The notes beneath the pieces are model-generated. The model was not told the DNA's origin. It did not search any database and saw nothing but the letters and a program-made list of their open reading frames with translations. The position numbers were made by a program, and so were the translations under genes. DNA of 64,000 nucleotides from assembly GCA_963662795.1 (NCBI GenBank), contig OY759746.1, forward strand, positions 96,001-160,000, given 5' to 3'. Source of the stretch: Spirochaetia bacterium (GTDB taxonomy: Bacteria > Spirochaetota > Spirochaetia > CADAEX01). Shown here in pieces: positions 853 through 20,186 of the stretch (positions are counted from its first letter, which is position 1; each line of letters begins with the position of its first letter).

Positions 853-2078
853 TGTCCGGCAGTTTGAAAGAGATTGAAACCATAATAATCGGAGCGGGGC
901 CCGCAGGGCTGATGGCAGCATCCGCCCTCCCCGGCTCTGCTTTAGTTCTTGAAAAAAAACCGGAAGCAGGTTTAAAACTGCTTATAAGCGGTTCAGGGCA
1001 ATGCAACCTGACCCATTCAGGGGCAAATGAAGAGCTGTTAACCCATTTTGGCAATAAATCAAGATTTTTAAAATCCTCCATCTATTCATTTTCGAATAGT
1101 GAGGTTTCTGTTTTTTTTGAATCAAAAAATGTTCCTCTTGTTACAAGGGAAGACGGAAAAGTATTTCCAGCAAGCTTCAGCTCCCGGGATATCTTAAACT
1201 GTCTGCTTAATGCCGTAAGGTCAGCCGGAAACAGAATTGAGTATAAAAGCGCGGTAAAGCGGATAAAAAAATCTGATAACTGTTTTTCAGTTGAAACTGA
1301 TTCCGCATCCTATAGATGCAGCAGCCTGATAATCGCAACAGGGGGTAAATCCTGGCCTGATACCGGTTCCTCAGGCGACGGGTATACTCTCGCGGAAAGC
1401 CTCGGCCATCCTGTTGTAAAGCCTGAACCGGCCCTTGCCCCTGTAAAAATTAAAAACCATCGTCTTGCGGGATTAAGCGGTATTTCATTTCAGGACATAA
1501 GCATATCACTCTGGAGAGGCGGGAAAAAAGCTGATGATTTCACCGGAGATATGCTTATTACGCATAACGGTTTATCAGGTCCCGCAATACTTGACAACTC
1601 AAGGTATTTAAGGGCCGGTGATATTCTTAAAATATCATTTTTCAAACTTCCTGAAAACATGGCTGTGTTCAGGGATAGAATCAGGAATGCAGGTAAACAA
1701 TCAGTTAAGAAATTTCTTCAGGGCTTTAATCTGCCGGGAAGGCTTCTTGATCATATAATCAGCATGGCAATGACATCTGCTGATAAAAACTGCGCAGACG
1801 CTGACAGCACAGAGATTAAACAGCTTTTTGCATACATTACTGCTTATCCCGCTGAAATTGCTTCCAAAGGGGGATTTGACACTGCCATGGTTACAGCCGG
1901 CGGAATTGACACCTTATTTGTAGATCCCAGAACAATGGAATCAAAGATCCACAGCGGTCTTTTTTTCGCCGGAGAAGTTCTTGATGTAGACGGAGATTCC
2001 GGAGGATACAATATACAGGCGGCATTCAGCACAGGCTATAAAGCTGCAGAGACAATAAAAAAAGGCAGGCCCCGGTAA
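852..2078 (+). CDS. HI0933/YhiN/BaiN-family NAD(P)/FAD-dependent oxidoreductase
   Basis: GAGPAG FAD motif, KLLISGSGQCNLT, ATGGKSWP..GSSGDGY, VTAGG, GEVLDVDGDSGGYNIQAAFSTG; TAATG overlap with the helicase stop. Confidence 0.93.
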   Translation: MSGSLKEIETIIIGAGPAGLMAASALPGSALVLEKKPEAGLKLLISGSGQCNLTHSGANEELLTHFGNKSRFLKSSIYSFSNSEVSVFFESKNVPLVTREDGKVFPASFSSRDILNCLLNAVRSAGNRIEYKSAVKRIKKSDNCFSVETDSASYRCSSLIIATGGKSWPDTGSSGDGYTLAESLGHPVVKPEPALAPVKIKNHRLAGLSGISFQDISISLWRGGKKADDFTGDMLITHNGLSGPAILDNSRYLRAGDILKISFFKLPENMAVFRDRIRNAGKQSVKKFLQGFNLPGRLLDHIISMAMTSADKNCADADSTEIKQLFAYITAYPAEIASKGGFDTAMVTAGGIDTLFVDPRTMESKIHSGLFFAGEVLDVDGDSGGYNIQAAFSTGYKAAETIKKGRPR

Positions 2079-2121
2079 CACCTGAGCCCGCCTTAAGATG
2101 AGGAAAAATAACAGTAAATAA

Positions 2122-3069
2122 TTATTTAAAAAACTGGAGGTAAATATCAGTTTTTGATGACTGGTCTTTGTTTACAAGTCCTTTATCATAAAGTTTTTTA
2201 TAGATATCCAGGTAATACAGGTCATAGGCTTTCTTGTTTTCAGCGTTTAAATCTTCCGAATTTGCAAATGAAATCTCAATTATTTTCCTTTCATTGTTAC
2301 CTTTCCTGAGAATCCAGTAATCAATTGTAAACTCAACATCCTTCAGAAAAGAATTTTTCGCATCAGCAAATGTACCTTCAAATCTACAGGAATCAGCGAC
2401 TCCAGGAAATGAAGCATCAGCAAGTGAAGGATATTTTTTCTTAAGCATTACAGCTGTTTGACCATTTTCTCCGCTTTCGAACCAGTTCCAGACTTTTTTA
2501 AGCTCAAGGTCGCCTTTGGCTGCGGAAAAATCCTTTTCCGGTGAATAATTAATATCAAATGCTGTATTATAGAGATGTGCTATGCTTTTCCTGTCATTTA
2601 CAGGTTTTCCTTCAGCGCCTGCATCAAACTCATATTCAACACCGTTTACAGATGTAAGATCAAGCGCCCCGAAAGTATTCTGCCTTGATTTTACAGTAAT
2701 CTTGCTTTTTGCCGGTTTCTTCCTGTCTTCTCTTACCCTGAAAATAAGACCTTTATCCCCGAATCCCCCTTTTCTGTCCAGTGCATACAAATAATAATAT
2801 TTTTTCACAGGGCCTTTGTCAGCGGGAAAAAGAATACCCAGATCTGCGAATACCTCCGCAACAGCTGCGGTTAGAACAGGTTCTCCCGAATCACTCACCG
2901 TAAAATCAAAGGCATCCTCATTAAGCACAATTTTGTATTCAATTGCAGGCATTTTTCCTTCTGCAATGCTTTTATCTACATCCTGTGCCGCGACCTGCCC
3001 GGCCGTAATTGTCATAAAAAATACAGCTGATAAAACAAATAATTTTTCTATTGTCCCTTTCACAAGCAA
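2122..3069 (-). CDS. Secreted hypothetical protein, probable CYTH/triphosphate-tunnel fold
   Basis: N-terminal signal peptide (..GQVAA|QD); CYTH-like motif order IEYK, FRVRE, ITVK, EYE, TID, IEIS, SKT. Confidence 0.55.
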   Translation of the reverse strand: MLVKGTIEKLFVLSAVFFMTITAGQVAAQDVDKSIAEGKMPAIEYKIVLNEDAFDFTVSDSGEPVLTAAVAEVFADLGILFPADKGPVKKYYYLYALDRKGGFGDKGLIFRVREDRKKPAKSKITVKSRQNTFGALDLTSVNGVEYEFDAGAEGKPVNDRKSIAHLYNTAFDINYSPEKDFSAAKGDLELKKVWNWFESGENGQTAVMLKKKYPSLADASFPGVADSCRFEGTFADAKNSFLKDVEFTIDYWILRKGNNERKIIEISFANSEDLNAENKKAYDLYYLDIYKKLYDKGLVNKDQSSKTDIYLQFFK

Positions 3070-3267
3070 CTCCTTTCTGAATTCTCATTGATTTTATATC
3101 CGCAATATGAAAGGTGTCCAATAAAAATAATCTATCTGTATTGATAACTTTTTTTGTTCAACAGCCTCTTAAATATTTTAAAAAATTGAGACTGAGGGAG
3201 AAGCTTTTTTACTAAAAAGATTTACATTTTTCTTGAAGTTGCGCGATTTTACAGTTATTATCTATGC

Positions 3268-3630
3268 ATGAAACAGCAATACAAAAACATAATTTCCTAT
3301 GTATGGTCAACCGATATGGAAAGATCCCAACGGTTTTATATCGATATTCTGGGTTTTCAGCAGGGTTCAACATCCGACAGCTGGATAGAGCTTGCAGTCC
3401 CAGGACTTCACACAGTTTATTTTGCCTTAAACAAATGGACACTTGATTCACCGGCACCTCAAAACAACTTCCTGACTCTTGGAGTAGGGAATATTGATGA
3501 ATTCAGAAAACACCTGACCGGCGCTGGTGTAAAACTGAAGGGAGAATCAGAATTTTACGAAGAAGGTATTAAGCTTCTTAAATTCCTGGATCCTGACGGA
3601 AATACAATTACAGCGGCAGAGGTAGTTTAA
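3268..3630 (+). CDS. VOC/glyoxalase family protein
   Basis: 120 aa; D.ERSQRFY.DILGF and F.DPDGN motifs. Confidence 0.85.
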   Translation: MKQQYKNIISYVWSTDMERSQRFYIDILGFQQGSTSDSWIELAVPGLHTVYFALNKWTLDSPAPQNNFLTLGVGNIDEFRKHLTGAGVKLKGESEFYEEGIKLLKFLDPDGNTITAAEVV

Positions 3631-6546: not shown

Positions 6547-6921
6547 ATGCACAGCAAGAGAAATTCCGACAGAAGAAAAGTTTTTTTCTATCTTGAAGTT
6601 GAAGACATGGATACAAAACAGATGATTGGCAGGCTGGGAGATATTTCATCTGAAGGGATTATGCTTTTATCATCTAAAGTTCTTCCTCTTGAAAAAACAT
6701 ACAGGATAGCAGTGATACTGCCTAAAAACAGCACTTTCAGCGTGGCAAAACTCGAACTGATAGTTGAAACCCGCTGGCTTAAGCCTGACTTCAATCCTGC
6801 AATCCTTTGCATAGGCTGCTGCTATAAAGAAGCAGCTCCGGATAAGGATTCTGTAACACAGAAGCTGATTGACTACTATGGATTCAGCGACGGCTATAAA
6901 AAGTTCAAGCCTGCGGAATAA
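6547..6921 (+). CDS. Stand-alone PilZ domain protein (c-di-GMP receptor)
   Basis: RxxxR (KRNSDR) and DxSxxG (DISSEG) motifs; RBS GGAG upstream. Confidence 0.85.
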   Translation: MHSKRNSDRRKVFFYLEVEDMDTKQMIGRLGDISSEGIMLLSSKVLPLEKTYRIAVILPKNSTFSVAKLELIVETRWLKPDFNPAILCIGCCYKEAAPDKDSVTQKLIDYYGFSDGYKKFKPAE

Positions 6922-6930
6922 TTAGAAAAT

Positions 6931-8781
6931 CTATTTAAAATCCAGTGTTACTGCCCCGCCCCAGTCTTCCGGCGGCGGATTTGTTTTGAATCCTTCGCAC
7001 CTGTCAACGTACATTTTTGACAGGTAATCACCGGGGGCTCTCTCAAGAACCTTCTTAAAGTATTCTATAGCTGTAACCCAGTTGCCTATTTTATAAAGCT
7101 GAAGCGCTTTTTTGTAGGAGGAATCACTTTCCCCGTCCATCTGTACATCAAGCGCTGTATTTACAGAAAAAAGTGTCGTAGGCTCTTCCTTGCCCTTAAC
7201 CCGGACAGTATCAACCTCGCGCAGCGAAAACTCATCCTTTACCTTTAGCGCAACAACTTCGGAGATTATAATCTGCCTTTTATAATGTTTTGTAATACCC
7301 TCAAGCCTTGAAGCAAGGTTTACGTTATCGCCTATTACCGTATAGTCAAATTTATCCTGGCTTCCGATGTTGCCGACAATTACGCTGCCCTCATGTATCC
7401 CGATCCCTATACGAAATCCGCCGGGCGGCAGATTTATCCCTTCCACAGTAATTTCCGGAAGCTTGTTTATCATGGCGGCAGCTGCCCTGACAGCTCTTGC
7501 CGCATTATCCTCATAGCTGGTAGGGGCGCCAAAAATTGCCAGTATTGCATCGCCTATAAATTTATCGATAACTCCGCCGCTGTTTTTTATCAGGCTTACC
7601 ATGTGCTGAAAATATGAATTAAGAAATGATACTATTTTTTCCGCAGAATTATTCTCTGAAATAACAGTAAAAGATCTGATATCTGAAAAAAGAATTGCAA
7701 CAGATCTTTTCTCACCTACTTTCATTTCAGTATCGCCTTCTGTCTTTTCAAGCAGCTCATTGATAATTTCAGGCGGTACAAATTTTGAAAAAACTCCCCG
7801 TATTTTCTGTTCAATATCATGCACCCGGTTAAAAAGTATGGCATTATCAAGTACCATGCCCGCACCTTTGGCAAATACTGAAACATTATCATTTATAATT
7901 TCTGAAAAATAATTATTGCTTAGATTCCCGACATGCAGTGTCCCGATTATTTCTTCACCCTTTCCTTTTAACGGAAAAAGAGCATAGGAGCTGAGTCTTC
8001 TCTGGTCTGAACGGAGTTTATCAAAATCTTCTCTATCCTCAATTCCAAAAACTACATCCTGAACCTCATCATCTGTCTTGCTGTTTTCCCTGAAATCAGC
8101 AAGACAGATCCCCTTAAAATCATCAAGATCACCCCGGTATATTTTTACAGAAGGAAGCTGGTAAAGAAGCGCTTTTTTACCGAATTTCAATATTATTACA
8201 CCAAGATGAGCTTCGCATATTCTTGTCAGGAGAAGCAGTATCTCAAGGCATGACTGAGGCAGCGAGCTTATAAATCTTTCAACTCCGGCAAGCTCATTAA
8301 GAATTGTAGAACGGAACAGCTCCCTGTCAAACAGGTTTCCAAGAAGCTCCATTGCATTTATTTCATTGATCCCTTCTCCATCTTCCCTGATGAGATCCCG
8401 GTCAAGTTTAGGCGCTTTTGAGATAAGTTCTTTCACCAGGTCGCCTAGATGTTCGAGATTATCAAAATCCTTGGTTACAAAAGCTTCAACTCCTGAAGAC
8501 ATTGCCCAAAATCTGTCCCGGTCCTCAGACAGGCTGGTATGCATGATAATCGGAATATCGCGCACTCCCCGCTTTGATTTCAAAAGCCTGCTGAGCTGAT
8601 ATCCCTGCAGCCTCGGCATCTCAACATCTGAAATTATTATATCAGGGATTTCCCGGTATGCGGCAAGCACCCCGTCAAGTCCGTTTACAGCTCTGACTAC
8701 TTCATATTGAAGCTCGGTAAAAAATTGATCCAGTACGCCGGCAATAACATCTGAATCATCAACAACAAGTATTTTAGCCAT
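6931..8781 (-). CDS. Response regulator receiver - GAF-like - class III adenylate cyclase with C-terminal TPR-like tail
   Basis: REC (VVDDS, SDVEMP); cyclase motifs LFSDIRSFT, KFIGDA, GIGIHEG, DYTVIGDNVNLASRLE. Confidence 0.9.
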   Translation of the reverse strand: MAKILVVDDSDVIAGVLDQFFTELQYEVVRAVNGLDGVLAAYREIPDIIISDVEMPRLQGYQLSRLLKSKRGVRDIPIIMHTSLSEDRDRFWAMSSGVEAFVTKDFDNLEHLGDLVKELISKAPKLDRDLIREDGEGINEINAMELLGNLFDRELFRSTILNELAGVERFISSLPQSCLEILLLLTRICEAHLGVIILKFGKKALLYQLPSVKIYRGDLDDFKGICLADFRENSKTDDEVQDVVFGIEDREDFDKLRSDQRRLSSYALFPLKGKGEEIIGTLHVGNLSNNYFSEIINDNVSVFAKGAGMVLDNAILFNRVHDIEQKIRGVFSKFVPPEIINELLEKTEGDTEMKVGEKRSVAILFSDIRSFTVISENNSAEKIVSFLNSYFQHMVSLIKNSGGVIDKFIGDAILAIFGAPTSYEDNAARAVRAAAAMINKLPEITVEGINLPPGGFRIGIGIHEGSVIVGNIGSQDKFDYTVIGDNVNLASRLEGITKHYKRQIIISEVVALKVKDEFSLREVDTVRVKGKEEPTTLFSVNTALDVQMDGESDSSYKKALQLYKIGNWVTAIEYFKKVLERAPGDYLSKMYVDRCEGFKTNPPPEDWGGAVTLDFK

Positions 8782-8792
8782 GATGCCGCCTC

Positions 8793-10997
8793 CTATGTCA
8801 GCCGCCTGGCAATACCTGCCAGGCTGTTTCTGTCAAATTCTGATTTTATGATATAAGCGCTTGCTCCTGCATTTATAACTTTCTTGCGGTATTCTTCTTC
8901 AGAATGTGAAGAAACAACAACTATCGGGATGTTGCGGAGTCTGTTATCCTTGCGGATATTTTCAATCATTGTTATTCCATCCATCCTCGGCATTTCCAGA
9001 TCAGTAATAATCAGATCTACATGATTGGATTTCAACTGTTCAAGTCCGTCAATTCCGTCAACCGCAGTTATAACCTGAAAATCTTCGAGTTCCAGTATTG
9101 ATTTTTCAATTTCTCTTGTGTTAAGTGAATCATCAACAACCAGAACCTTTTTTGCCTGTTTCTGTTCGGATAATTTACCCCGCAGCAGATCAACTGTTTT
9201 AATGCTCTTGAATGCCTTAATAAGTTCAGGAACAAATAATATATTTATAATGCTGTAAGTTTCATCAAAAACAATACCCTGAATCAGTTTAAGTTTCTGC
9301 AGATTCCTTGGAAGCGGTTTATAGATAAGCTGTACATGCTGAAGTATTGAATCAACAATAATCCCTATTTTATCACCAACAGATTCAACCACTACCACAT
9401 AGATAAAATCATTACGCGATGGAGGGTTGCTGCCCATTATTGAAGAAAGTGTATAAAGCGGTACAATCTTGTCGCCCAGTTTAAATGCAGCCTTGTTAAA
9501 ATAGGTCAGTTTGTCCTTTACTGCCAGACGGACAATTTTATCCACAAAATTACTCGGTATAAGAAATTTATGATCTCCGGACCGGACAAAAAATCCGCTG
9601 ACTGTTGCAAGGGAAAGAGGAAGCGATAAAATAAACTCGGTTCCTATTCCAAGTGTGCTTTTAATTGTAATTTTGCCCTTCACCTTCTGAATATTATGGC
9701 GGACTATATCGAGGCCTACACCGCGTCCTGACAGATCTGTCACCTGCGCCTTTGTTGAAAAGCCGGGAGCAAAAAGAAAACTGTAAACATCACTTTCAGT
9801 AAGCTCATCAAGCTCTTCCTTGGATACAAGGCCCCTTTCTATCGCCTGACGTTTAACCTTGTCGTGGTCAATACCCCGTCCGTCATCAATTATCTTTATT
9901 ATGATATTTCCGCCTTCAGAGAGGCAGCTGATGCGTATATTTCCCTGGGGATTTTTTCCTGTGCTTTTTCTTTCCTCCCGGGTTTCAAGTCCATGATCAA
10001 GAGAGTTTCTGACTATATGAATAATGGGATCATGCAGTTTTTCCAGAATAGCCTTGTCAAGAAGGACATCCATTCCTGACATCTGACAGCTGACATCTTT
10101 TTCAAGCAGTGATGATACTTCTTCAACCATCCTGGGTATTGAGCCGAATATCAGTTCAAGAGGAAGCATTGTAAGACGCATAAGCTGTTCCTGCAGCTCG
10201 TAGGTATTTCGCTCGATAACCGCGATCTGCTCTGAAAAGCTTTTTTTGACAGTCTGTATGCTTTTCTGGAATTCCTGGAATTCCCTGTAAAATCCGGCTG
10301 CCTCTTTCAGTTTTCTGAGGCTTCCCATTTGTTCCTGAAACCTGGAAGCGAACTGGGTTATATCTTCCTGGATCTTCTTGAACTGAAACTGCTTGATGAC
10401 TATCTGGTTCATGGTCTGCATTATCCCGTCGATACTTGCAAGCTTTACCCTGATAGTTTCATATTCAGGGTTTTCACCTCCCTGGGGGAGCGGTGTTGAA
10501 GCATTCAAAGCAGCGTTATCTGTTCGTGCAGATCCGGATGGGGATGCAGTCGGAGAAGAGGCCGCTGTATTCCTGCTCATTATCTCCCTTAGGCTTTCAA
10601 GCTCATAAGGCTCGTTTGCGTAAATCCTTTCAGAAACAGCAGTATAGGCTTCAAGCGGCGGGCTGTCCTGCCTATTATCTTTGATAAATGCAGTTCCTCC
10701 CTTGAGCAGGTCGCAGCCGATAAAAACAACCTGAATAAAAGGAGGAGAAAAAGTATAGCGTTTTTCTCTTATCCCTTTGAAAAGATTTTCCATTGCATGG
10801 GCAGTCTGCTCCATACCGAGGAATTTCAGCATCCGCGAAGATCCTTTAATGGTATGGAGTGATCTTAATACCGCGTTCAGCTCTTCTTCGTTATCCGGAT
10901 CTTTTTTTAGTTTAAGAATTCCGCGTTCTACTGCCTGAATATTTTCTGCAGCTTCTTCAAGGTAGTTTCCTATAAAAGCATCACGGTTAATTGCCAC
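8793..10997 (-). CDS. cheA: Hybrid chemosensory histidine kinase CheA (Hpt-dimer-HATPase-CheW-REC)
   Basis: LHTIKGSS Hpt, HIVRNSLDHG, DDGRG, FAPGFST..SGRGVGLD, CheW domain, C-terminal REC (VVDDS, TDLEMP); GTG start. Confidence 0.95.
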   Translation of the reverse strand: MAINRDAFIGNYLEEAAENIQAVERGILKLKKDPDNEEELNAVLRSLHTIKGSSRMLKFLGMEQTAHAMENLFKGIREKRYTFSPPFIQVVFIGCDLLKGGTAFIKDNRQDSPPLEAYTAVSERIYANEPYELESLREIMSRNTAASSPTASPSGSARTDNAALNASTPLPQGGENPEYETIRVKLASIDGIMQTMNQIVIKQFQFKKIQEDITQFASRFQEQMGSLRKLKEAAGFYREFQEFQKSIQTVKKSFSEQIAVIERNTYELQEQLMRLTMLPLELIFGSIPRMVEEVSSLLEKDVSCQMSGMDVLLDKAILEKLHDPIIHIVRNSLDHGLETREERKSTGKNPQGNIRISCLSEGGNIIIKIIDDGRGIDHDKVKRQAIERGLVSKEELDELTESDVYSFLFAPGFSTKAQVTDLSGRGVGLDIVRHNIQKVKGKITIKSTLGIGTEFILSLPLSLATVSGFFVRSGDHKFLIPSNFVDKIVRLAVKDKLTYFNKAAFKLGDKIVPLYTLSSIMGSNPPSRNDFIYVVVVESVGDKIGIIVDSILQHVQLIYKPLPRNLQKLKLIQGIVFDETYSIINILFVPELIKAFKSIKTVDLLRGKLSEQKQAKKVLVVDDSLNTREIEKSILELEDFQVITAVDGIDGLEQLKSNHVDLIITDLEMPRMDGITMIENIRKDNRLRNIPIVVVSSHSEEEYRKKVINAGASAYIIKSEFDRNSLAGIARRLT

Positions 10998-11009
10998 AGC
11001 TGTCCCCCT

Positions 11010-12401
11010 TTATATTTTGACCCGGTGCAAGGGTTTAATTTTTTCAATCCATTTCCGGCACATATATTTAAAATAGGCCTGATCAAAGTCCTCAAGTAAA
11101 AAAGAAAAAACATTTTTTTCTCCGGATGTTTCATTTTCCAGAATATCAAGACAGTTTCTGAACTCATCTCGTGCTTTAACAGGATTTTTTTCTGTCAGAT
11201 TAAGAGCATAATAAAAGCGGGCAGGCCAGAAATCACTGCGGATGCTGAAAGCGCGCAGGAAATACTCCTCAGCAGTGTTTTTTTCCCCTGTCCAGTACTT
11301 CAGCCTGCCTTCAAGAAAAGCTATCAGGGCAGTTCCCGCGATATCTTTTTTTAAATCAGTGAGTATTTCATCCGCTGCCTTAAAATCAGATTCATTTATT
11401 TTCGATAGAAACAGGCGGATATGCCTGGCTGCCCCGGTATAAAAAGCATCTATACCTTCGCTTAAGCTCTCAGGCGCGGCAAGGCATGTAATAATCATAT
11501 CTTCCGGGCTGACTGAAGATTTTTCCGGTAATTTATTACTCTGAATCTTCTCAACTTCAGGAACAGCCGGAGAAGGATTTGCCGGCTGCTGTTTCTGAAA
11601 ATAATAAACTCCCTGCTTTTCATGAAGGATAAGATTTTCATTTTTAACAAACGGCACTTCACTTGAAGCAAGAAAAAAATATCCGCCTGATGCAAGTTTA
11701 TCTGCAAGCCGGCTGATAAGGTCATCCCTTTTATCCATTGCAAGATAGAGCAGCGTATTCCTGAAAAAAATAAGGTCAGCAGGCTCCGGAAGAAAATCAA
11801 AAGAATCCTGATAGAAGTTAAGCCTCCGGGAGGTGATTTTACCAGGCAGAAGTGAATCAGGCAGGAACTCACTTCCTGTTTTACCGGAAGGCATAAGATG
11901 TTTATCAAGCAGGGGACGAAAACCCAACCCGTCTTTGCGGAACGAATGAGAAGAGAACCGGCCTGATTCAAGAGAGGCAAGCACGTGTGTATTTATATCA
12001 GTTGCAAAAATATGAAAATCACGCGCTGCGTGTTTTTCCTTTTCACTCATGGCAAGAACAGCAAGAGATACAGCTTCCTCGCCGGTTGAACAGGAAACAC
12101 TCCAGATCAGCAGCTTTTGTTTATTAGTAAAAAGCTCCGGTAATATTTCCTCCTGCAGAAGCAGAAACTGTTTCTCCTCCCTGAAAAAATATGTTTCATT
12201 TATTGTTGCTGCATTCAGCAAAGCCTGCTGTGCATCTCCTGCGTTACCCGCAAGAAGCAGAAACTCCTTTCCGCTCAGGTATCTTGATTTAAGTTCTTTC
12301 TCAATTTCCCGGCGGATGTGGTTTCTGTGTGATACAGGAGGCATCATGCCGGTGAGAGATTCAATCAATTTTATATATTCTTCAAATATTTTATCTGTCA
12401 T
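11010..12401 (-). CDS. cheR: CheR methyltransferase with C-terminal TPR region (WspC/FrzF-like architecture)
   Basis: TINETYFFRE, CSTGEE, ATDIN, DLIFFRN; helical repeat C-terminus. Confidence 0.9.
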   Translation of the reverse strand: MTDKIFEEYIKLIESLTGMMPPVSHRNHIRREIEKELKSRYLSGKEFLLLAGNAGDAQQALLNAATINETYFFREEKQFLLLQEEILPELFTNKQKLLIWSVSCSTGEEAVSLAVLAMSEKEKHAARDFHIFATDINTHVLASLESGRFSSHSFRKDGLGFRPLLDKHLMPSGKTGSEFLPDSLLPGKITSRRLNFYQDSFDFLPEPADLIFFRNTLLYLAMDKRDDLISRLADKLASGGYFFLASSEVPFVKNENLILHEKQGVYYFQKQQPANPSPAVPEVEKIQSNKLPEKSSVSPEDMIITCLAAPESLSEGIDAFYTGAARHIRLFLSKINESDFKAADEILTDLKKDIAGTALIAFLEGRLKYWTGEKNTAEEYFLRAFSIRSDFWPARFYYALNLTEKNPVKARDEFRNCLDILENETSGEKNVFSFLLEDFDQAYFKYMCRKWIEKIKPLHRVKI

Positions 12402-13390
12402 TTCTTACCGGCAAGCTGAACCAGATAACTGCTGATTTCAGGAAGAGGCAGTATTTTCACTGCCCCGCCCCTTTCAATAGCAGCTTTCGGCATACCGAAT
12501 ATTGTTGAGGTTGACTCATCCTGAACAATTGTATGCCCGCCCTTTCCCTTTATATAAACACTGCCGTCAGCACCGTCAGTTCCCATTCCAGTCAGAAGAA
12601 CGCTTATAAGACTCTTGCCGAACCAGTCACCTGCTGTTATAAACAGCCGGTCAACGGCAGGCCGCTGGTTAACAACTTTAGGGCTGTTCTCAAGCGCAAG
12701 ACGCCCCTCTTTAACAATAAGGTGGCTGTTTCCCGGCGCTACCCAGAGGGTTCCCGGAATAAATTCCTCCCCTCCTGATGCAAGGCGGACTTTAAGGCTG
12801 GTCTGGCTGTCAAGCCAGGCTGCAAAGCTTTTATCAAATCTGTCTTCAATATGCTGAACAAGCGCAAGGCCGAGAGGGTAATCAGACGGGATACGGCCGA
12901 GAAGCTCCTTAAGCGTAACAGGCCCTCCGGTAGATGCTCCGATTACGACAGCGCTGTAGGCGCTTCCTGCCCTGCCGGCAGATGCAGCATCGCGCTGCCT
13001 TGTAATGTGAGCCCGGCTTAATTCTTTAAGTTTGTTTAGAAACATATTGAGAAACTCAGGTTCATTCATTTTATCTATGTCGGGTTTTCTCACTGCATCA
13101 AGCGCTCCTTTTCCAAGCGCTTTTACGGTAAGGTCACTGTCTACTTCATTTGAAAAAATGCAGATAGGGACAGGGCATTCAGACATAATTCTTCCTGTAG
13201 CTTCAAGCCCGTTCATCACAGGCATGTTTATATCCATAAGCACAAGGTCGGGTTTGAGCGATTTCACCAGATCAAGCCCCTGCAGCCCATTTGAGGCCTC
13301 GCCTGCAAGTTCTATATCATCAGTTTCAGCAAATACTGTTTTAAGTATATTACGGATAAGAGCAGAATCATCAACAATCAGAATTCTCAT
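12398..13390 (-). CDS. cheB: CheB methylesterase (REC + esterase)
   Basis: REC (DDS, MDINMP); GASTGG, VQH, LTGMGTDGA, FGMPKAA. Confidence 0.95.
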   Translation of the reverse strand: MRILIVDDSALIRNILKTVFAETDDIELAGEASNGLQGLDLVKSLKPDLVLMDINMPVMNGLEATGRIMSECPVPICIFSNEVDSDLTVKALGKGALDAVRKPDIDKMNEPEFLNMFLNKLKELSRAHITRQRDAASAGRAGSAYSAVVIGASTGGPVTLKELLGRIPSDYPLGLALVQHIEDRFDKSFAAWLDSQTSLKVRLASGGEEFIPGTLWVAPGNSHLIVKEGRLALENSPKVVNQRPAVDRLFITAGDWFGKSLISVLLTGMGTDGADGSVYIKGKGGHTIVQDESTSTIFGMPKAAIERGGAVKILPLPEISSYLVQLAGKK

Positions 13391-13931
13391 TATTATCCTC
13401 CAAAGCTTTCAGTATTTTTTCCTCAAAAAGGATATCAAGATCTACCATATAACGCATTCTGCCGCCGGCTGGAAATGATACAGCAAGAACTCCCTGCTTC
13501 TCCAGATGCGCGGCAAGAACGGCTGGCTGCAGACAGAGTTCTGTCAGCATCACATCAGTCATAATTGTGGCTGACGCGACACGGAACGCTATCATATCCT
13601 GCCGGACTTCCTCTTCAAGATAGAAATTATCCTCAAGCTTATCAAGTATTTCCAGTATTTCAGATGACAGGGTTTTTTTATCCCGGATCAGGGCAAGGTG
13701 AGCCTCGCCTGAAGGCTGCGCCTGAAAAAAATTCTGAAAGAAAAGATCCAGATTAAAAAGAGGTATAATTTTTTCTTTCAGCCTGAGTCCCTCCTGCAGA
13801 AACATACAGGAAGTTTTTCTCTCTTCAGTTTCCGCAATGTAAACACTTGTTGTACACTGTTCCCTGTTTATCTGGAATTCCACCTTTGAATGAGGGATAG
13901 TCAGTACTTTAATAATATTTTCAGCGCTCAA
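13371..13931 (-). CDS. Hypothetical protein, possibly a divergent CheW-like adaptor
   Basis: TTG start after GGAGAGG, overlapping the cheW stop; IIPLFNLD, IAFRV and YMVDLD segments echo CheW strands; sits at the WspD-like position. Confidence 0.5.
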   Translation of the reverse strand: MSAENIIKVLTIPHSKVEFQINREQCTTSVYIAETEERKTSCMFLQEGLRLKEKIIPLFNLDLFFQNFFQAQPSGEAHLALIRDKKTLSSEILEILDKLEDNFYLEEEVRQDMIAFRVASATIMTDVMLTELCLQPAVLAAHLEKQGVLAVSFPAGGRMRYMVDLDILFEEKILKALEDNNENSDC

Positions 13932-14421
13932 TATCCCTCTCCAGTCTCTCAAGCAGGGCCTGTCCCTTAAGAACAAAAACTTCCTGTCCTTTCAGAGAAA
14001 TTGATTCAAGAAAATAACGGCTGGAATCATCATCGGATGATATTTTATGCACATCGCCGGAAGGAATTTTTATAATCTCATCTACATCGGAAATAAGAAG
14101 ACATGCCTGGTCCTGTAAAAGATTAAGAACCAACAGTGTTGATGATTCAAGTTTTTCATTATGGAACAGCAGATTCAGATCAAAAACTGTATACGGCTGC
14201 CCGTGTCTGTTGGCATATCCCCTTACATAGGGAGGAACAAATGGCACATAATACAGTGAATTGTCAAAAGAAATTTCCTTTACATCAGCTGCAGGCAGGG
14301 CATATCTCCCGTTCCCGAGAGAAAAAACAACATACTTGCACATAACATTATCAGTGCTGCTGTCTGTATTGCTGTTTCCGGCGGGGTTTTTTAGTTTATT
14401 CATTAAATCCTGGTTATTCAT
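13921..14421 (-). CDS. cheW: CheW coupling protein
   Basis: YVVFSLG.GRYAL, VPFVPPYVRG..N.HG..YTVFDL, LLISDV; start moved to ATG 14421 after GAGGAG. Confidence 0.9.
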   Translation of the reverse strand: MNNQDLMNKLKNPAGNSNTDSSTDNVMCKYVVFSLGNGRYALPAADVKEISFDNSLYYVPFVPPYVRGYANRHGQPYTVFDLNLLFHNEKLESSTLLVLNLLQDQACLLISDVDEIIKIPSGDVHKISSDDDSSRYFLESISLKGQEVFVLKGQALLERLERDIER

Positions 14422-14422
14422 T

Positions 14423-16408
14423 TCATTTCTCCTCTGAAACACTGTATCTCGCAACTGATTCATTAAACTGGTCTGCTATCACTTTCAGCTGATCAGATGC
14501 CTCGCTTGTAGATCTGGTTGAGATGACAAAATTGTCAATCCCTTCGGATATCTGTTTCAGGGTAAGAAAAATCTGCTCAAATGATGCTACCTGCATTTTT
14601 ATGGCACGCGCAATATCATTTGCAGATGCTGCTGATATTTCACTGGAACTTAAAACATCTTCAAATACGCCCCGGATATGATGTGAAATATCCCAACCCT
14701 CTTTAATGCGCATTGTCCCCTCTTCAGAAGCTATAATCAGCTTGTCTGATGCATGCTGAATCTCGTTGATTTTGGTTTTAATCTCATTTGTTGAATCAAC
14801 AGTACTGTCCGCGAGACGGCGTATTTCGCTTGCTACTATCTGAAAGTTTCTGCCTGCATCACCGGCGGCAGCTGCTTCCAACTCTGCGTTAAACGCTATT
14901 ATTTTAGTCTGGTCGGCAATACCATTAATAATATTGACTATGTCCCAGATTGAATCAATCTGTCCGCCGAGAGTTTTGATACCGCCGATTGTGTTGGCAT
15001 TTGTTTCCCGTATCTCGCTCATTTTACCCAGACTGTTTTTAATATGGTCAAAACCTTTTTCGACTGTTTCCTTTGTGTTATTAGCTATTTTTACAACTTC
15101 CTGTATTCTTACAGCAACGCCCTGTGATAATTTATCTGAATCCTCCATGGTGCTGAGTATTTCCTTGACAGATGCAGCCTGCTGATTGGCAGTACTTGAA
15201 ACCTCCTGAGTACCTGCGCCAAGGCTGTGTGTGGATTCAATCAGTACTTCAGATGCGTTTTGTATTTTTTTTACAAGTGCAGAAAAAGAATCAATTACAT
15301 TATTAAAAAAAGAAGCAAGTTCTCCCATTTCATCATTCGAAGTAATATTTATCCTGCCTGTTAAATCGCCTGAAGCTGCCATTGTTGAAACTGACTGGAT
15401 ATTTTTCATCGGCAGCAGAATTCTTGACATCAGCGTTTTTATAAATAGTGAAACAATAATCGATGCGGTTATAATTGAAATAAATATAATAAGTCTGAAA
15501 ATTTTTATAACATTCATATATTCCGCGGTGAAATCATTGACTGCAGCATACCATGATGAATCAGGGATTCGCGTAAAATCTGCTATGACTTCTCCATATC
15601 CGGTATTATAAGAGTAACTGCCTTTTTCATTTTTAATCACTTCAGCTGTCATATCTGCAAGATTTTTCAGACCTTCAGCCTCATTACTGTAATTATCAAG
15701 AAACAGCTGTTTGCCTGCAACAACTGAACCTGATTTATCTATCAGCATTAAAAATCCGCGGTTTCCTGCCTTTATATTTTCTATTGATCTGCGGATTTGT
15801 TCATAGTCAAGCAGGGTCTCAAATTCCTCTTTATAGGATGAGGCCCAGACCATGATGTCCCAGGGTTTATAATATGAAAGATAACCTGCCTTTATCCTTG
15901 CTTTCTCTTCCCCTGGATTTTTCCATTCATATTCAAGATAACCGTTTTTCATAGCCATGGCTTTCTTCATGAATTCATGACCGCTTGCATCTGCCCCTTC
16001 AGATTTAGGATGGATTGTTAAAATTCCACTGGTACTTACTCCTGCAAGATAACCGGTAGTGCCGATTCTTCCATAGTCAGGATCAAGCATGATACGCCTT
16101 GCTTCAGCCCGCGCCTGTTCCATGGTAATCCGGTTTTTACTGACCTGCAGATTATAATAAGAAAGAAGTTCGCGGTTCTTTTCTGCTACAGCTCTTAAAT
16201 AATTTTTGACAGCTCCATCTATTTCATTCTGAATCAGTTGAACAGAGATTTTTAAAGTATTTTCCCTGTTCCTCTCAGCAAGATTTGTAAGTTCCTTATC
16301 AAGGCGGTTTGTACTTACAAGTCCCATAACTGCCATAAGAAGAATAAAAGGAATATTGGTTGTTAAACTGATTTTACCGGCAAGATCTTTTCCTATTTTG
16401 AATTTCAT
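14423..16408 (-). CDS. Methyl-accepting chemotaxis protein with periplasmic Cache domain and HAMP
   Basis: TM1, Cache (GY...HP..EG, YEWKNPG, KPWD), TM2, HAMP (GDLT..I..NDEMGEL), MA domain. Confidence 0.92.
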   Translation of the reverse strand: MKFKIGKDLAGKISLTTNIPFILLMAVMGLVSTNRLDKELTNLAERNRENTLKISVQLIQNEIDGAVKNYLRAVAEKNRELLSYYNLQVSKNRITMEQARAEARRIMLDPDYGRIGTTGYLAGVSTSGILTIHPKSEGADASGHEFMKKAMAMKNGYLEYEWKNPGEEKARIKAGYLSYYKPWDIMVWASSYKEEFETLLDYEQIRRSIENIKAGNRGFLMLIDKSGSVVAGKQLFLDNYSNEAEGLKNLADMTAEVIKNEKGSYSYNTGYGEVIADFTRIPDSSWYAAVNDFTAEYMNVIKIFRLIIFISIITASIIVSLFIKTLMSRILLPMKNIQSVSTMAASGDLTGRINITSNDEMGELASFFNNVIDSFSALVKKIQNASEVLIESTHSLGAGTQEVSSTANQQAASVKEILSTMEDSDKLSQGVAVRIQEVVKIANNTKETVEKGFDHIKNSLGKMSEIRETNANTIGGIKTLGGQIDSIWDIVNIINGIADQTKIIAFNAELEAAAAGDAGRNFQIVASEIRRLADSTVDSTNEIKTKINEIQHASDKLIIASEEGTMRIKEGWDISHHIRGVFEDVLSSSEISAASANDIARAIKMQVASFEQIFLTLKQISEGIDNFVISTRSTSEASDQLKVIADQFNESVARYSVSEEK

Positions 16409-16419
16409 GCGTATCTCCC

Positions 16420-18426
16420 CTATCCATTAAACCCGTGTATTTTTGTCACTACATCTTCAAGTTCAGTCAGAGTCTGATTGAAGCTTGCTTCCTGAATATC
16501 TGTTGACTTCTTTATCGTTTTTTCAGTGTTTTCTGAAAAACTTAAAACTTCCTGGAAAATCTCACCAAGTTTTTGCGAAAGCCCCGCACCTGACCGTATT
16601 GATTCTCCTTCCTTTCTTGAGGAGCGTATAAGTGTGTCTGCAGTTTTCTGAATCTCTTCAATTTTCAAACGTATTTTCTTTGTAGAATCAACAGTATTAT
16701 CAGCAAGTCTCCTGATTTCACCCGCAACAATCTCAAAGCTGCGTCCTGTCTCACCTGCCGAGGCAGCTTCAAGTTCCGCATTAAAGGCAATTATTTTGGT
16801 CTGATCTGTAATAGTTGAAATAATTGAAACTATATCCCAGATACTGCCTATCTGTTCAGCCAGTGTTTTTATGCCTTCAAGTGTAACAGTGCTTGAATTC
16901 TCAATATCCTTCATCTGTTCAATACTTTGTTTAAGGAACACAAAACCGGAATTAACATTTTCCTTAATCTGCCTTGTCAGCATTGCAATCTGCTTCATGG
17001 AGACAAGGTCCTCCCCGTTGTTTTTTAAAGAAGCATCTCCGCTCTCTCCTGTAAGCTGACGTAGTGCATCTGTAAGGTGTTCTGTAGATTCCTTCAGCTG
17101 TTCTATAAGAAGTTTTATCATCTCTTTTCTGCTTGCCCTTTCATAATGAAAACAGTTGGATGGTTTATTGAGATTGTTGAATATCGCGGTTGCCATTGAT
17201 TTACAGTTGCCGTATCCGCAAGCGCCACAGTTGAGAAAATCCTCCTGCCGAAACTTGTGCATTTTATGGTAAAGTATTTCAAGCTCCTGATTTGTAGGTG
17301 TTTTTACTGTATTGGTGCCGGACCTGTCTATATATGAGCGGCTGTATATACCCTTGCGCCAGTATCTTGAAAGAATCCGGTTTATTGCCCTCCTTGAGCC
17401 CCGCAGGCTTCCAAGTGCTTTTTTTAAATACCTGCCTGCCGCTTTTTTATTTCTCTCTTCAATATAATATTCAATTTCATCAAGAGGTTTTTCCCTGTTC
17501 AGCGTTCCAGGTCCGCCGTTACACCCCCGCTCGCAGTTAAGACAGTCAATAAGGGGAGGCGCAAACCTTTTATCAATCATTTCAGGAAGTTCCTTGAGAT
17601 AATCGTAAATTATTCCAGGGCCTTCTATCTTGCGCGTACTCCTGGCAAGAGACGGGAGTTCCCTTGCTACAGTCCGCATAAGCCCTCCGGGCGATGAAAA
17701 AAGAACTCCACGCTCGGCGGCAGGATTATGAAAATCAACTTCCGGATATGAATCAGGATTAATATTCTTTTCCTGAAGATAATTGAAAAGCGAGTTATAG
17801 GTTACGTTATATCCTTTTACACCGGTCGCGTCAAACTCCCGCTTCTTCGCGTAGCATGGTGATAAAATCATTACCTTGTGATTTTTATAGGCCGGATAAT
17901 ACTCATGTATCATTTTGACTGTGTGAAGCATGGGAGAATCTGCCGGGGCAAGATAGGGAAGAAGCTTCGGCTGATATATTTCAAGATATGAGACAATCGC
18001 GGGACACGGCTGCGCAATAACAGTCACAGGTTTTAATTCTTTGACTGCTTCCAGGTATGACCTGACTGTAAGTTCAGCGCCAAAGCTTACATCAAAAAAA
18101 GCCTCAACTCCCATTGACTTGAGCCAGCCGTGGATATTCAGGTAATTACCCGGGAAATTCGCAGCTATCGCAGGCGCTGAAATAGCAACCATTGGCTCTT
18201 TTTTTCCCGAAGCTTCAAGCCAGAGCGGGAAATCATCTATTCCGCTTCTTGCCTGGTGTGTACAGGCCGCTATACAGGAACCGCATCCGATACACAGGTC
18301 AGCGCTGACTTCAACATGATCCTCAAGCGCGTTGTTACAGTATTTTACAGGACAGGCCGCGATACAGGCATGACAATTGACACATTTTTCCGCATTAACT
18401 TCAATAACAGGTGCAAGCTGACTCAT
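16420..18426 (-). CDS. Soluble [FeFe]-hydrogenase-like (group C, putative sensory) domain fused to an MCP signalling domain
   Basis: 2x[4Fe-4S] (CVNCHACIAACP, CIGCGSCIAACT); H-cluster-like motifs AQPCP, SPCYAKKRE, CERGCNGGPG; Cx2Cx4Cx16C domain; MA tip DQTKIIAFNAELEAA. Confidence 0.85.
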   Translation of the reverse strand: MSQLAPVIEVNAEKCVNCHACIAACPVKYCNNALEDHVEVSADLCIGCGSCIAACTHQARSGIDDFPLWLEASGKKEPMVAISAPAIAANFPGNYLNIHGWLKSMGVEAFFDVSFGAELTVRSYLEAVKELKPVTVIAQPCPAIVSYLEIYQPKLLPYLAPADSPMLHTVKMIHEYYPAYKNHKVMILSPCYAKKREFDATGVKGYNVTYNSLFNYLQEKNINPDSYPEVDFHNPAAERGVLFSSPGGLMRTVARELPSLARSTRKIEGPGIIYDYLKELPEMIDKRFAPPLIDCLNCERGCNGGPGTLNREKPLDEIEYYIEERNKKAAGRYLKKALGSLRGSRRAINRILSRYWRKGIYSRSYIDRSGTNTVKTPTNQELEILYHKMHKFRQEDFLNCGACGYGNCKSMATAIFNNLNKPSNCFHYERASRKEMIKLLIEQLKESTEHLTDALRQLTGESGDASLKNNGEDLVSMKQIAMLTRQIKENVNSGFVFLKQSIEQMKDIENSSTVTLEGIKTLAEQIGSIWDIVSIISTITDQTKIIAFNAELEAASAGETGRSFEIVAGEIRRLADNTVDSTKKIRLKIEEIQKTADTLIRSSRKEGESIRSGAGLSQKLGEIFQEVLSFSENTEKTIKKSTDIQEASFNQTLTELEDVVTKIHGFNG

Positions 18427-20186
18427 TAACAGGTCTCCTCATTCTTTACTTTATAACTCTCAACTATTCCATTAAGCACACCGGCTGTTTCCTCAAGTGT
18501 GTTTGCGGTATCAGCATTTTCATCTATCGTCTGCGCAAATTCACTGATGCCTTCAGATATCTGTCTGAGAGTAATCAATATCTGTTCAAAAGCGTTCATT
18601 TGCTTATTTACAGATTCCCTTATTTCTTCGGTTGATTCGGCTGAAGTTTCAGATGCCTCCAGAATCCTGGTAAAAAGCCCTTCAATTTTCTGCGACATTT
18701 CCCAGGCTTCCTGAATTTTTTCTGAATCATGCTCAGATGACTGGATTAGCCTGTCTGAAGCCTCTTCAATCTCGCTTATTCTGGATTTTATCTCGCCTGT
18801 GGATGCTACTGTATTATCCGCAAGACGGCGTATTTCACTGGCCACAATCTCGAAGTTCTTTCCTGCCTCGCCGGCGGAAGAGGCTTCAAGTGCAGCGTTA
18901 AACGCTATGATTTTAATCTGCCCTGCGATATTGTTGATTATTTTTACAATTTCCCAGATACTGTTAATATGCTCTCCGAGAGTCTTTATCCCTTCAATTG
19001 TCTGGTCATAGGATAATTTTACCTGATCCATTTTTTCGAGGTTCTGCTGAATTGTTGAAAAGCCGTCCCTGACATTTTCCTTTACAGAGACAGACTGATC
19101 AGCCACAAGCTTTACCTGGGAACCAACCTCTTTTGAGAGAACATCAACATCCTCCATTGTGGAAACAACCTCGGTCGCGGCAGCTGCCTGCTCATTGGAA
19201 TATGCTGCATTCTGCTGACTTGAAGCCGCTACCCTTTTTGTTGATTCAATGATTTTAAAACTGGTTTGATGGATATCGCCAAGCAGCTTGTTAAAATTAT
19301 CAAGAATCGCGTTTACATATTCTGCAATTTCTCCAAGCTCATTAAAGTTGAGTATATTTATTCTTTTATCCAGATCTGAAGACTGCCGTGAAAGATCTCT
19401 GACAAGCTCATGTATTGAGCGTATCTGAAGCGTATATTCATAACGTGCCAGAGCCATAAGCCCTGAGGCTGTCGCAATGCATAAGACGCCAAGTCCGAAG
19501 ACAGAAAAATAAAAATCACCTGACAGCACAAATATTTCCCTGTTGGCATAGTAATAAACCACATATGCAAATGATACTGCAATATAAAAGGATGAAAACA
19601 GGACTACCAGGGTATCACGGGATCTTGAAAATCCGTCATACTCGCCTTCGCGGATTTCCTGTATCATCAGCTCTTTTTTTGCTGATATCAGGCTTAAATT
19701 AATAAGTATGGCTGTGTACATGCCTGCCATAACTCCGACTGATACTTTCAGAAGAATGCCGAAGATGTAGGGGATTCCGCTCTCGACTTTAAAGTGATTC
19801 ATCATATAGTAAGCAGAAGTGCCTAAAAACCATGTGCATACCTGAAAAATAAGGATTGTCCATGGAATTCTTATCGCGGCAATCCGCGCCTGCTGATATT
19901 TTTCCCCTTTTTCAAGATACGTAAACAGAGGACGCAGGAATGCAAGTATAATCATATAAAGAATTACAGAAAAAACTATATAAAGGGCTACTACTGCAGG
20001 CTTGAATGTAAAGACAACTCTCTGCGCAAAACTGAATCCCTGCCTGTCAAGCGCATTGTTGAAAACCGCGTTAAGGAACTCACTTAAAAACAGAAAAAAT
20101 CCGAGTATACCGAAATTAATAATACCCAGACGTATCTTTAAATAAGTGTCGATTTTAGACCGGTTTAATTTGTTTGATTGAATCAT
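18426..20186 (-). CDS. Methyl-accepting chemotaxis protein with multi-pass (about 6 TM) membrane sensor and HAMP
   Basis: Six hydrophobic segments in the first ~250 aa, HAMP (DL.KRI...NELGEI), MA domain. Confidence 0.88.
   Translation of the reverse strand: MIQSNKLNRSKIDTYLKIRLGIINFGILGFFLFLSEFLNAVFNNALDRQGFSFAQRVVFTFKPAVVALYIVFSVILYMIILAFLRPLFTYLEKGEKYQQARIAAIRIPWTILIFQVCTWFLGTSAYYMMNHFKVESGIPYIFGILLKVSVGVMAGMYTAILINLSLISAKKELMIQEIREGEYDGFSRSRDTLVVLFSSFYIAVSFAYVVYYYANREIFVLSGDFYFSVFGLGVLCIATASGLMALARYEYTLQIRSIHELVRDLSRQSSDLDKRINILNFNELGEIAEYVNAILDNFNKLLGDIHQTSFKIIESTKRVAASSQQNAAYSNEQAAAATEVVSTMEDVDVLSKEVGSQVKLVADQSVSVKENVRDGFSTIQQNLEKMDQVKLSYDQTIEGIKTLGEHINSIWEIVKIINNIAGQIKIIAFNAALEASSAGEAGKNFEIVASEIRRLADNTVASTGEIKSRISEIEEASDRLIQSSEHDSEKIQEAWEMSQKIEGLFTRILEASETSAESTEEIRESVNKQMNAFEQILITLRQISEGISEFAQTIDENADTANTLEETAGVLNGIVESYKVKNEETC

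Follow-up and report, generated by a model that had tools for sequence, protein, structure and literature searches.

The operon described here lies in a stretch of 64,000 nucleotides from a Spirochaetia bacterium (assembly GCA_963662795.1, contig OY759746.1), hereafter the window, which comprises positions 96,001–160,000 of a single-contig genome of 3.93 Mb. Nine co-oriented open reading frames (ORFs) on the minus strand span positions 6931–20186 of the window (Table 1). They encode three methyl-accepting chemotaxis proteins (MCPs), CheW, a second protein of predicted CheW fold, CheB, CheR, a hybrid CheA kinase and, as the last gene, a receiver (REC) protein with a class III nucleotide cyclase domain. 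With starts taken from the longest ORFs, the junctions measure, in gene order, −1, +11, −41, −56, −20, −4, +12 and +11 nt. A Pfam search of the nine genes found no CheY, CheX, CheD or flagellar gene. The tight packing and the lack of a stand-alone CheY were both features of the original prediction, which had been made from the sequence letters, and are confirmed by the ORF coordinates and Pfam. We consider it probable that the operon encodes an alternative-function, i.e. non-motility, chemosensory pathway with synthesis of cyclic adenosine monophosphate (cAMP) as its output.

Table 1. Genes of the chemosensory operon, with positions given in the window.
Gene product	Position	Strand	Evidence
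Receptor 1, multi-pass membrane MCP, 586 aa	18426..20186	(-)	Pfam MCPsignal E 2.8e-26
Receptor 2, [FeFe]-hydrogenase-like MCP, 668 aa	16420..18426	(-)	Pfam Fer4 x2, Fe_hyd_lg_C, PF04060, MCPsignal
Receptor 3, transmembrane Cache-HAMP MCP, 661 aa	14423..16408	(-)	Pfam Cache_3-Cache_2, HAMP, MCPsignal
CheW coupling protein, 180 aa by longest ORF	13921..14463	(-)	Pfam CheW E 7.2e-17
Divergent protein of predicted CheW fold, 201 aa by longest ORF	13371..13976	(-)	AlphaFold and Foldseek
CheB methylesterase with REC	12398..13390	(-)	Pfam CheB_methylest E 6.8e-54, Response_reg E 2.8e-22
CheR methyltransferase with C-terminal extension	11010..12401	(-)	Pfam CheR E 5.2e-30
CheA-REC hybrid kinase, 734 aa	8793..10997	(-)	Pfam Hpt, dimerisation, HATPase, CheW(P5), REC
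REC-GAF-like protein, predicted class III adenylate cyclase (output)	6931..8781	(-)	Pfam REC and Guanylate_cyc E 3.4e-29

The second coupling protein, encoded between cheW and cheB, has no Pfam or NCBIfam match, and its profile gave zero matches against the PDB sequences. Its alignment with the cluster CheW proteins by hhalign is collinear but weak (Prob 4%, E 0.01). An AlphaFold model computed from a 19-sequence alignment, with a predicted local distance difference test (pLDDT) score of 83 and a predicted template modelling score of 0.80, was compared with the PDB using Foldseek, and the top 17 matches were all CheW or CheA-P5 domains (E 1e-7 to 2e-5, target TM-score at most 0.76). An ORF of 139–236 aa occupies the same position in 19 aligned loci. 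The model thus describes a divergent protein of the two-subdomain beta-barrel CheW/P5 fold, whose true start is probably further downstream than that of the longest ORF. The label 'CheW-like' given to it earlier is borne out by the predicted fold and not by the sequence profile.

The output protein and its linkage to CheA

The output protein consists of a receiver domain (residues 3–122), a GAF-like region (about 140–290), a long helix (294–331), a class III catalytic domain (356–540) and a tail resembling tetratricopeptide repeats (TPR; 550–600), which is indicated by Pfam and by the structural model and had not been mentioned before. Pfam assigns the output domain to Guanylate_cyc (PF00211) and detects no GGDEF domain in the protein. 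The assignment of the middle region (residues ~125–335) as GAF-like is based on protein-language-model features, which place it in GAF clusters (0.95, 0.93 and 0.92), and on the AlphaFold model (pLDDT 86), in which helices accompany a sheet of five strands with one helix inserted, and a long helix leads out into the cyclase. Over the whole chain, the structure that matches best is that of a phytochrome-cyclase fusion (PDB code 6fht; 508 columns). A profile of the GAF region matched PDB entries, some of them GAF domains, only at E 0.2–1.3, and these matches are not used as evidence.

The PDB matches of the catalytic domain are Cya2, CyaC and CyaB. Across 22 cyclase orthologues Asp367, Lys407, Asp411, Asn488 and Arg492 are invariant and Thr481 is nearly so. 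Lys407 aligns with the lysine of an engineered, adenylate-converted Cya2 (6fht), at a position where native Cya2 (2w01) has a glutamate, whereas Thr481 aligns with the threonine of Pseudomonas aeruginosa CyaB in the PDB alignment. Among class III cyclases, a lysine together with a threonine in place of an aspartate marks the adenylate cyclases of subclass IIIb. The complete set of IIIb residues, i.e. the two metal-binding aspartates, the Lys–Thr pair and the transition-state asparagine and arginine, is present, and the protein is predicted to be a class IIIb adenylate cyclase that forms cAMP as a dimer. A guanylate cyclase was considered and ruled out because Lys407 occupies the position of the native Cya2 glutamate. 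The receiver retains its phospho-acceptor site and the accompanying residues (Asp8/Asp9, Asp52, Thr82 and Lys104), as read from the translation.

The gene immediately upstream encodes CheA, in which the domains follow the order given in Table 1 with no P2 domain detected by Pfam, and which contains the phospho-histidine motif HTIKG. The genome encodes four further CheA-sized proteins with CheW domains, so that motility control would not depend on the nine-gene operon. Two che sets elsewhere in the genome (C1, ~2,264,700–2,269,000 and ~3,601,000–3,605,300), each containing an MCP, a CheW, a 417-aa MCP-like ORF and a CheA, have identical or near-identical scores and sequences. They point to a large duplication or, possibly, to an artefact of assembly, which could account for the 'contamination' of 5.7% given for this one-contig, 98% complete genome.

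When 401 spirochaete genomes were searched with the cyclase sequence, full-length matches, covering residues ~3–616, appeared in two tiers: 50–55% identity in 13 genomes and 35–42% in about nine more. Twenty neighbourhoods chosen by full-length cyclase similarity (34–55%) were analysed together with loci L035 and L038, giving 22 loci; the selection did not include G320, G368, the second copies present in G296, G326 and G362, or the matches of partial length in G373, G365, G341 and G350. CheA-REC is encoded immediately upstream of the cyclase in all 22, and genes for CheR, CheB, the small ORF and CheW lie further upstream as far as the contigs reach, with MCP genes placed between cheR and cheA in three of them (L082–L084). 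The adjacency of CheA and cyclase is invariant over 34–66% protein identity in genome and metagenome loci, and the core from CheW to CheA-REC and cyclase is conserved. Loss of synteny between the cyclase and the che cluster in relatives, which the original prediction had named as grounds for its rejection, was not encountered: the two are joined in 22 of 22 genome loci and, as described below, in 31 of 36 metagenome loci, the other five having no room for the cyclase gene.

Among 8000 database proteins scored, 1168 are relatives of the cyclase at E≤1e-60. The 120 best are mostly 613–625 aa long and at least 47% identical, with three shorter ones of 500–599 aa, and those that carry a name are spirochaetal except for one metagenome-assembled genome (MAG) labelled Chlamydiales. 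The sequence relatives come from spirochaete MAGs labelled Spirochaeta, Sediminispirochaeta, Spirochaetaceae and Rectinemataceae. The genome of the window itself contains ten class III cyclase matches and 18 matches to cyclic nucleoside monophosphate (cNMP)-binding domains over the cut-off, so that the operon would be one input into a rich cAMP network.

Two of the related loci contain additional genes next to the cyclase. In L071 (genome G281), within 16480–19559, an ORF of the thiol-activated cytolysin family (Pfam E 6.6e-36) lies downstream of the cyclase and is followed by a second GAF-cyclase copy that lacks the receiver. In L084 (G347) a protein with GAF and HD domains (18770–19900) is encoded directly 3' of the cyclase. 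This candidate phosphohydrolase, with a putative ability to bind cyclic nucleotides, could close a cAMP loop in the lineage concerned.

The operon of the window is flanked upstream by a GNAT gene and a TRAP transporter, and downstream by a convergent PilZ-like ORF and an ABC-F gene. The PilZ match of the convergent ORF (6547–6921, plus strand) is below threshold (E 0.005; 17.5 bits, cut-off 22.5), and the ORF is possibly a protein that binds cyclic diguanylate (c-di-GMP) beside a cAMP cyclase. Promoter-like sites numbered 45 against 30.3 ± 6.0 in shuffled sequences and yielded nothing usable. Terminator-like sites numbered 14 against 11.6 ± 3.5 in shuffles, with no convincing internal minus-strand terminator in the operon.

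The receptors and their signalling tip

The three receptors differ in their input domains. Receptor 1 has five to six hydrophobic segments in residues 16–248 by hydropathy and no known sensor domain; homologues of its N-terminal part occur in the clusters L070, L071 and L079. Receptor 3 combines a periplasmic Cache_3-Cache_2 sensor (E 1.9e-19), a HAMP domain and an MCPsignal domain (E 1.1e-27) with two transmembrane segments. Receptor 2 has no hydrophobic segment and is therefore cytoplasmic, and its signalling hairpin of the cluster class encompasses residues ~440–668 (MCPsignal, E 5.3e-23).

The receptors share an unusual signalling tip, QTKIIAFNAELEA..AG followed by NF.IVA.EIRRLAD.TV, of which receptor 1 has a variant (QIKIIAFNAALEASSAG), reading QIKIIAFNAALEA. 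The genome contains about 20 MCP genes, counted as 20 PF00015 ORFs including two near-identical pairs. Of the 18 different sequences that were aligned, only the three from the operon bear the signature, and the others have the canonical tip QTNLLAMNAAIEAAHAG...GFAVVA. Receptors 1 and 3 contain a 14-residue insertion that is absent from receptor 2, in which 112 residues follow the hairpin tip compared with 147–149 in the other two, i.e. about 35 fewer. The coiled-coil hairpin of receptor 2 would consequently be shorter than those of its array partners. The consensus for methylation sites is matched once in receptor 3 and not at all in receptors 1 and 2, a pattern too crude to interpret.

The signature separates receptor 2 from other hydrogenase-like receptors. 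A second hydrogenase-like MCP of the same genome (2,716,413–2,718,527), with a sensor domain 54% identical, has the canonical tip, and the 28 hydrogenase-like MCPs examined from other spirochaete genomes all lack the signature. It is found in exactly the top 32 of the 120 database proteins most closely related to receptor 2. In a quick maximum-likelihood tree of 84 signalling domains, all cluster MCPs fall into one clade of 34 rows with a Shimodaira–Hasegawa-like approximate likelihood-ratio support of 99 and a stem of 1.68, and the paralogue from the same genome lies outside it together with the 28 other spirochaete proteins.

Metagenome contigs were then scanned with the receptor signature, and not the cyclase, as the search pattern. 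This gave more than 635 matches, of which 74 loci were retrieved. A CheA gene is present in 36 of them and is followed by the cyclase gene in 31; in the other five less than 1.9 kb remains after CheA, so no locus with sufficient room lacks the cyclase. Because these loci were picked by receptor, the scan is an independent test of the link between receptor and cyclase, and this link rests on the receptor class as well as on gene position. The earlier proposal that the hydrogenase receptor is wired to a cyclase instead of the motor gains independent support from these data, since receptor 2 has a signalling domain specific to the cluster that its paralogue and all 28 other proteins lack.

By contrast, the view of the hydrogenase receptor as the defining part of the system did not hold. 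Receptor 2 is present in only two of the 22 genome loci, the window and L038, and is an accessory component that most related clusters lack. The other loci use Cache_3-Cache_2, dCache, 4HB or multi-transmembrane receptors. The ~700-aa MCPs of related clusters were considered as diverged hydrogenase receptors and rejected, as they have Cache_3-Cache_2, dCache or 4HB domains.

Operons of the window type that include receptor 2 recur in the metagenome loci L119 and L123, the receptor of the latter being identical to that of L038, so that L123 and L038 probably stem from the same organism. The related loci L121 and L122 contain a receptor of this type with no che genes following it. A second, more distant group of hydrogenase-like MCPs with the signature (L125–L131, 43–46% identity) stands alone. 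In L125 (within 250–3570) such an MCP directly follows a GAF-cyclase-like ORF and precedes a further hydrogenase-like ORF, and no che genes occur in the vicinity. A FastTree of the sensor domains resolves the two signature-bearing groups as distinct clades, with starred branches that require at least two changes. This suggests that the sensor and the cyclase-class signalling module were joined on more than one occasion, or that a single joining was followed by one loss.

The signal of the hydrogenase-like receptor

Receptor 2 contains two ferredoxin-type four-cysteine motifs (C15–C25 and C45–C55), an Fe_hyd_lg_C domain (residues 78–306, E 2.4e-28) and a C-terminal CxxCx4Cx16C motif (C400–C425), which overlaps the PF04060 match (residues 398–425, E 1.6e-6); five cysteine clusters are predicted in total. 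Four cysteines, C141, C191, C298 and C302, align with the H-cluster ligands of solved [FeFe]-hydrogenases and are candidates for this function. The motifs surrounding the active site read AQPCP, SPC and LNC in receptor 2 and TSCCP, MPC and MAC in the aligned solved hydrogenase. With the numbering of CpI mapped by motif, the equivalents of C299, M353 and M497 would be proline, serine and leucine. The protein fits group C2 of the [FeFe]-hydrogenases in that the H-domain retains its ligands and is fused to an MCP; of the three H-cluster maturases, HydG was not found.

The maturases HydE (327.8 bits) and HydF (470.3 bits) are encoded in the genome and score over their curated cut-offs, as part of a cluster (C1, ~1,018,759–1,022,325) in which an aspartate-ammonia-lyase-like gene lies between them, and three hydrogenase genes score as prototypical enzymes. 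HydG was found neither by its family model over the whole genome nor by its BATS domain. It is also absent among the five ORFs of suitable length with a radical-SAM motif, which are KamA, a SPASM maturase, MiaB, RimO and HemW. The same family model finds HydG over the cut-off in 139 of the 401 spirochaete genomes. As HydG was not found, the [2Fe] subcluster may not be made.

Two versions of the proposed pathway differ in what receptor 2 would sense, and we judge them to be of similar likelihood. In the first, the receptor carries a complete H-cluster and senses H2: binding or oxidation of H2 would alter the redox state of the cluster, and this change would reach the MCP hairpin by way of the C-terminal [4Fe-4S] motif. 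The four H-cluster ligands and Lys194 are invariant in 30 subfamily members, which speaks for this version, as do the presence of HydE and HydF and of the three prototypical-scoring hydrogenases. HydDB defines group C2 as putative H2 sensors that act through MCPs. According to PMC10055695, sensory [FeFe]-hydrogenases are altered at C299, M353 and M497, with serine common at the second position, a pattern that the proline, serine and leucine of receptor 2 would follow. An atypical C-terminal four-cysteine cluster is likewise described for HydS-type sensory enzymes in PMC13104023. However, HydG was missed by three approaches in a 98% complete, single-contig genome, and neither HydG nor HydF was found in the MAG G401, which has the same operon and whose completeness is not established. 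Of 61 spirochaete genomes that match the sensor domain strongly, 19 are without HydG, 15 of these being at least 97% complete, with the overlap determined by hand. The leucine at the M497 position is a further difficulty, since the M497L variant of a prototypical enzyme had no properly integrated [2Fe] cluster according to PMC10055695, and no characterised group C2 protein was found in the literature searched. Sensing of H2 by receptor 2 is therefore somewhat doubtful.

In the second version the receptor acts in the same pathway as an iron–sulfur (Fe-S) redox sensor devoid of [2Fe], and responds to the reduction state of ferredoxin or the cytoplasm, to O2 or to Fe-S damage. This version accommodates the failure to find HydG in the genome of the window and its absence from many others with receptors of this kind. 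The five predicted cysteine clusters are suited to electron exchange, and a proline replaces the cysteine of the proton relay. On the other hand, a plain [4Fe-4S] site would not need the four H-cluster ligands and the nearby lysine, all of which are strictly conserved, and HydE and HydF are kept in the genome. We regard redox sensing as possible, with less than even confidence. H2 as the signal, which the original prediction had named alongside redox state, is not supported, HydG not having been found in a one-contig genome and Fe-S or redox sensing being at least as likely.

An adapting H2-to-cAMP converter, in which a receptor with a true H-cluster drives a dedicated array with an adenylate cyclase output, is rather unlikely in our estimation. 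If correct, spirochaetes would possess an H2 signal that is temporal, filtered by methylation and passed on as a second messenger, and hydrogenase sensors would have been plugged into the cAMP pathway at least twice, as the sensor and signalling-domain trees suggest. If HydG is truly absent, the cofactor of the H-cluster would have to be supplied by a non-canonical route.

Proposed pathway and relation to known systems

What the sequences show directly is the gene content, the conserved cluster, the specificity of the receptor class and the intact catalytic and phospho-acceptor residues. The scheme that we infer covers phosphotransfer, the sign of regulation, the identity of the signal and the downstream targets. 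The three receptors of the private tip class would assemble with CheW, the CheW-fold protein and CheA-REC. CheA would autophosphorylate on the histidine of its Hpt domain and pass the phosphoryl group to Asp52 of the cyclase receiver, and the receiver would reset how active the cyclase dimer is by way of the GAF-like domain and the long helix that follows it. Methylation of the receptors by CheR and demethylation by CheB would provide adaptation, so that cAMP would report changes of the signal and not its absolute level, while the receivers of CheA and CheB would act as competing phosphate acceptors. The hydrogenase-like receptor would add a cytoplasmic input, H2 if the H-cluster is made and otherwise the Fe-S redox state. 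Many cNMP-binding proteins are encoded at other places in the genome and would be the readers of the resulting cAMP.

Several observations weigh against this scheme. Transfer from CheA to the cyclase receiver is deduced from adjacency, and the receivers of CheA and CheB are alternative acceptors. In three of four distant treponeme-like orthologues (L085, L086 and L088, from G305, G326 and G362; 34–36% identical), the acceptor aspartate is replaced by serine, asparagine or tyrosine and the adjacency to CheA is kept. These receivers cannot use canonical phosphorylation and may be pseudo-receivers, which weakens the generality of the mechanism. Of the 31 metagenome cyclases encoded directly after CheA, 14 (12 labelled mid-CYC and two CYC) gave no REC match in a BLAST search with the receiver of the window. 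The 13 ORFs scanned downstream of the cyclase contain no conserved cAMP effector; among them are an ABC-F protein, an ammonium transporter, an aldehyde dehydrogenase, TetR, Dam and a transketolase. Receptor 2 may have only an incomplete H-cluster, since HydG was not found. Two of the domain labels assigned at the outset stand only in part. In 'REC-GAF-cyclase' the receiver and cyclase are confirmed by Pfam, but the GAF domain is below threshold by sequence (GAF_2, E 0.005 in the window, and E≤1 in nine of 22 orthologues) and is backed by the language-model features and topology. In 'CheR-TPR' the methyltransferase is confirmed, but the C-terminal extension of ~190 aa is weakly TPR-like, with an NCBIfam match to the TPR-protein family TIGR02917 (residues 323–424, E 2.5e-7) and no Pfam TPR at E≤0.05 in residues 270–463.

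The degenerate acceptor residues of the distant orthologues, together with the four other Che systems of the genome, would also agree with a different explanation, namely that the cyclase is merely co-transcribed. CheA would then act through its own receiver or a distant CheY, and the cyclase receiver would be served by another kinase or be a pseudo-receiver. This explanation appears improbable in view of the adjacency of CheA and cyclase, invariant across 34–66% protein identity, the lack of a CheY in the operon, the private receptor class and the complete receiver signature of the window cyclase. A dedicated pathway from CheA to the cyclase hence remains the favoured interpretation. It would constitute a defined path by which signals from the environment and the cytoplasm reach cAMP in spirochaetes, and a common one, given the 1168 cyclase relatives and the more than 635 signature matches in metagenomes. 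The tip sequence of its receptors would predict membership of the pathway, and the system lends itself to examining what group C2 hydrogenase-like receptors sense, a question of long standing.

With regard to classification, CheY-like domains occur mostly in the F3, F5, alternative cellular function (ACF) and Tfp classes, according to PMC10782961, and three spirochaete CheA proteins of the same architecture are labelled cheaACF in the MiST-based Table S2 of that study. The operon displays the ACF traits of a CheA with C-terminal REC and no P2, a multi-domain output protein other than CheY, and a cluster with no motility genes. Fusion of CheR to TPR, common among ACF clusters though no requirement for the class, has the weak sequence support given above. 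By analogy with the labelled spirochaete proteins, its layout can be described as ACF-like. The alternative-function layout with an enzymatic response regulator, as put forward initially, is supported by this architecture and by the conservation in 22 of 22 loci.

A similar combination has been catalogued once. A cheR-TPR cluster with a REC-CHD 'mononucleotidyl cyclase' regulator (D8FCI6) is listed in Table S2, row 107, of Munoz-Martinez et al. 2012 (PMC3447774), and resembles the operon in joining a che gene set to a REC-cyclase. It is a single table entry that comes with no analysis and no receptor information, in a survey whose supplements contain zero Spirochaeta or Treponema. No characterised Che pathway with an adenylate cyclase as response regulator was found in the full-text literature searched, from which subscription papers and bioRxiv supplements were excluded, in agreement with the initial statement that no characterised example is known.

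Receptor 2 resembles group C2 and HydS proteins in its two Fer4 motifs, H-domain, C-terminal four-cysteine cluster, retained H-cluster cysteines and altered C299, M353 and M497 positions, and shares with group C2 the fusion to an MCP signalling domain. It differs from both in that HydG was not found in its genome. HydS ends in a PAS domain and is linked to kinases or phosphatases, whereas the subfamily of receptor 2 (32 of the 120 best relatives) carries the signalling domain of the cyclase pathway, which also sets it apart from the chemotaxis role proposed for group C2.

Chemosensory control of cAMP from a class IIIb-type cyclase is shared with the Pil-Chp/CyaB system of P. aeruginosa, and CyaB (3r5g) is among the closest solved catalytic domains to that of the operon. 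Pil-Chp controls CyaB indirectly via single-domain response regulators, and CyaB itself is no response regulator. By contrast, the operon cyclase itself carries the receiver and is encoded beside CheA.

The known outputs of non-motility chemosensory systems are c-di-GMP (Wsp), gene regulation and development. Wsp of Pseudomonas is an ACF-class pathway whose output protein, WspR, is a REC-GGDEF diguanylate cyclase. The operon has in common with the Wsp layout a CheA-REC without P2, two CheW-type proteins, CheB, a CheR with a C-terminal extension, the lack of CheY and a receiver-cyclase output encoded at the operon end. It differs in its spirochaete host and distinct signalling-tip signature, in having three receptors instead of one, including a cytoplasmic Fe-S receptor, and in the output, a predicted class III adenylate cyclase with a GAF-like linker in place of GGDEF, with cAMP instead of c-di-GMP as the messenger. 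The operon would thus work like Wsp without being a member of the Wsp family, as its output has no GGDEF domain, and represents an uncharacterised variant of the alternative-function chemosensory systems.

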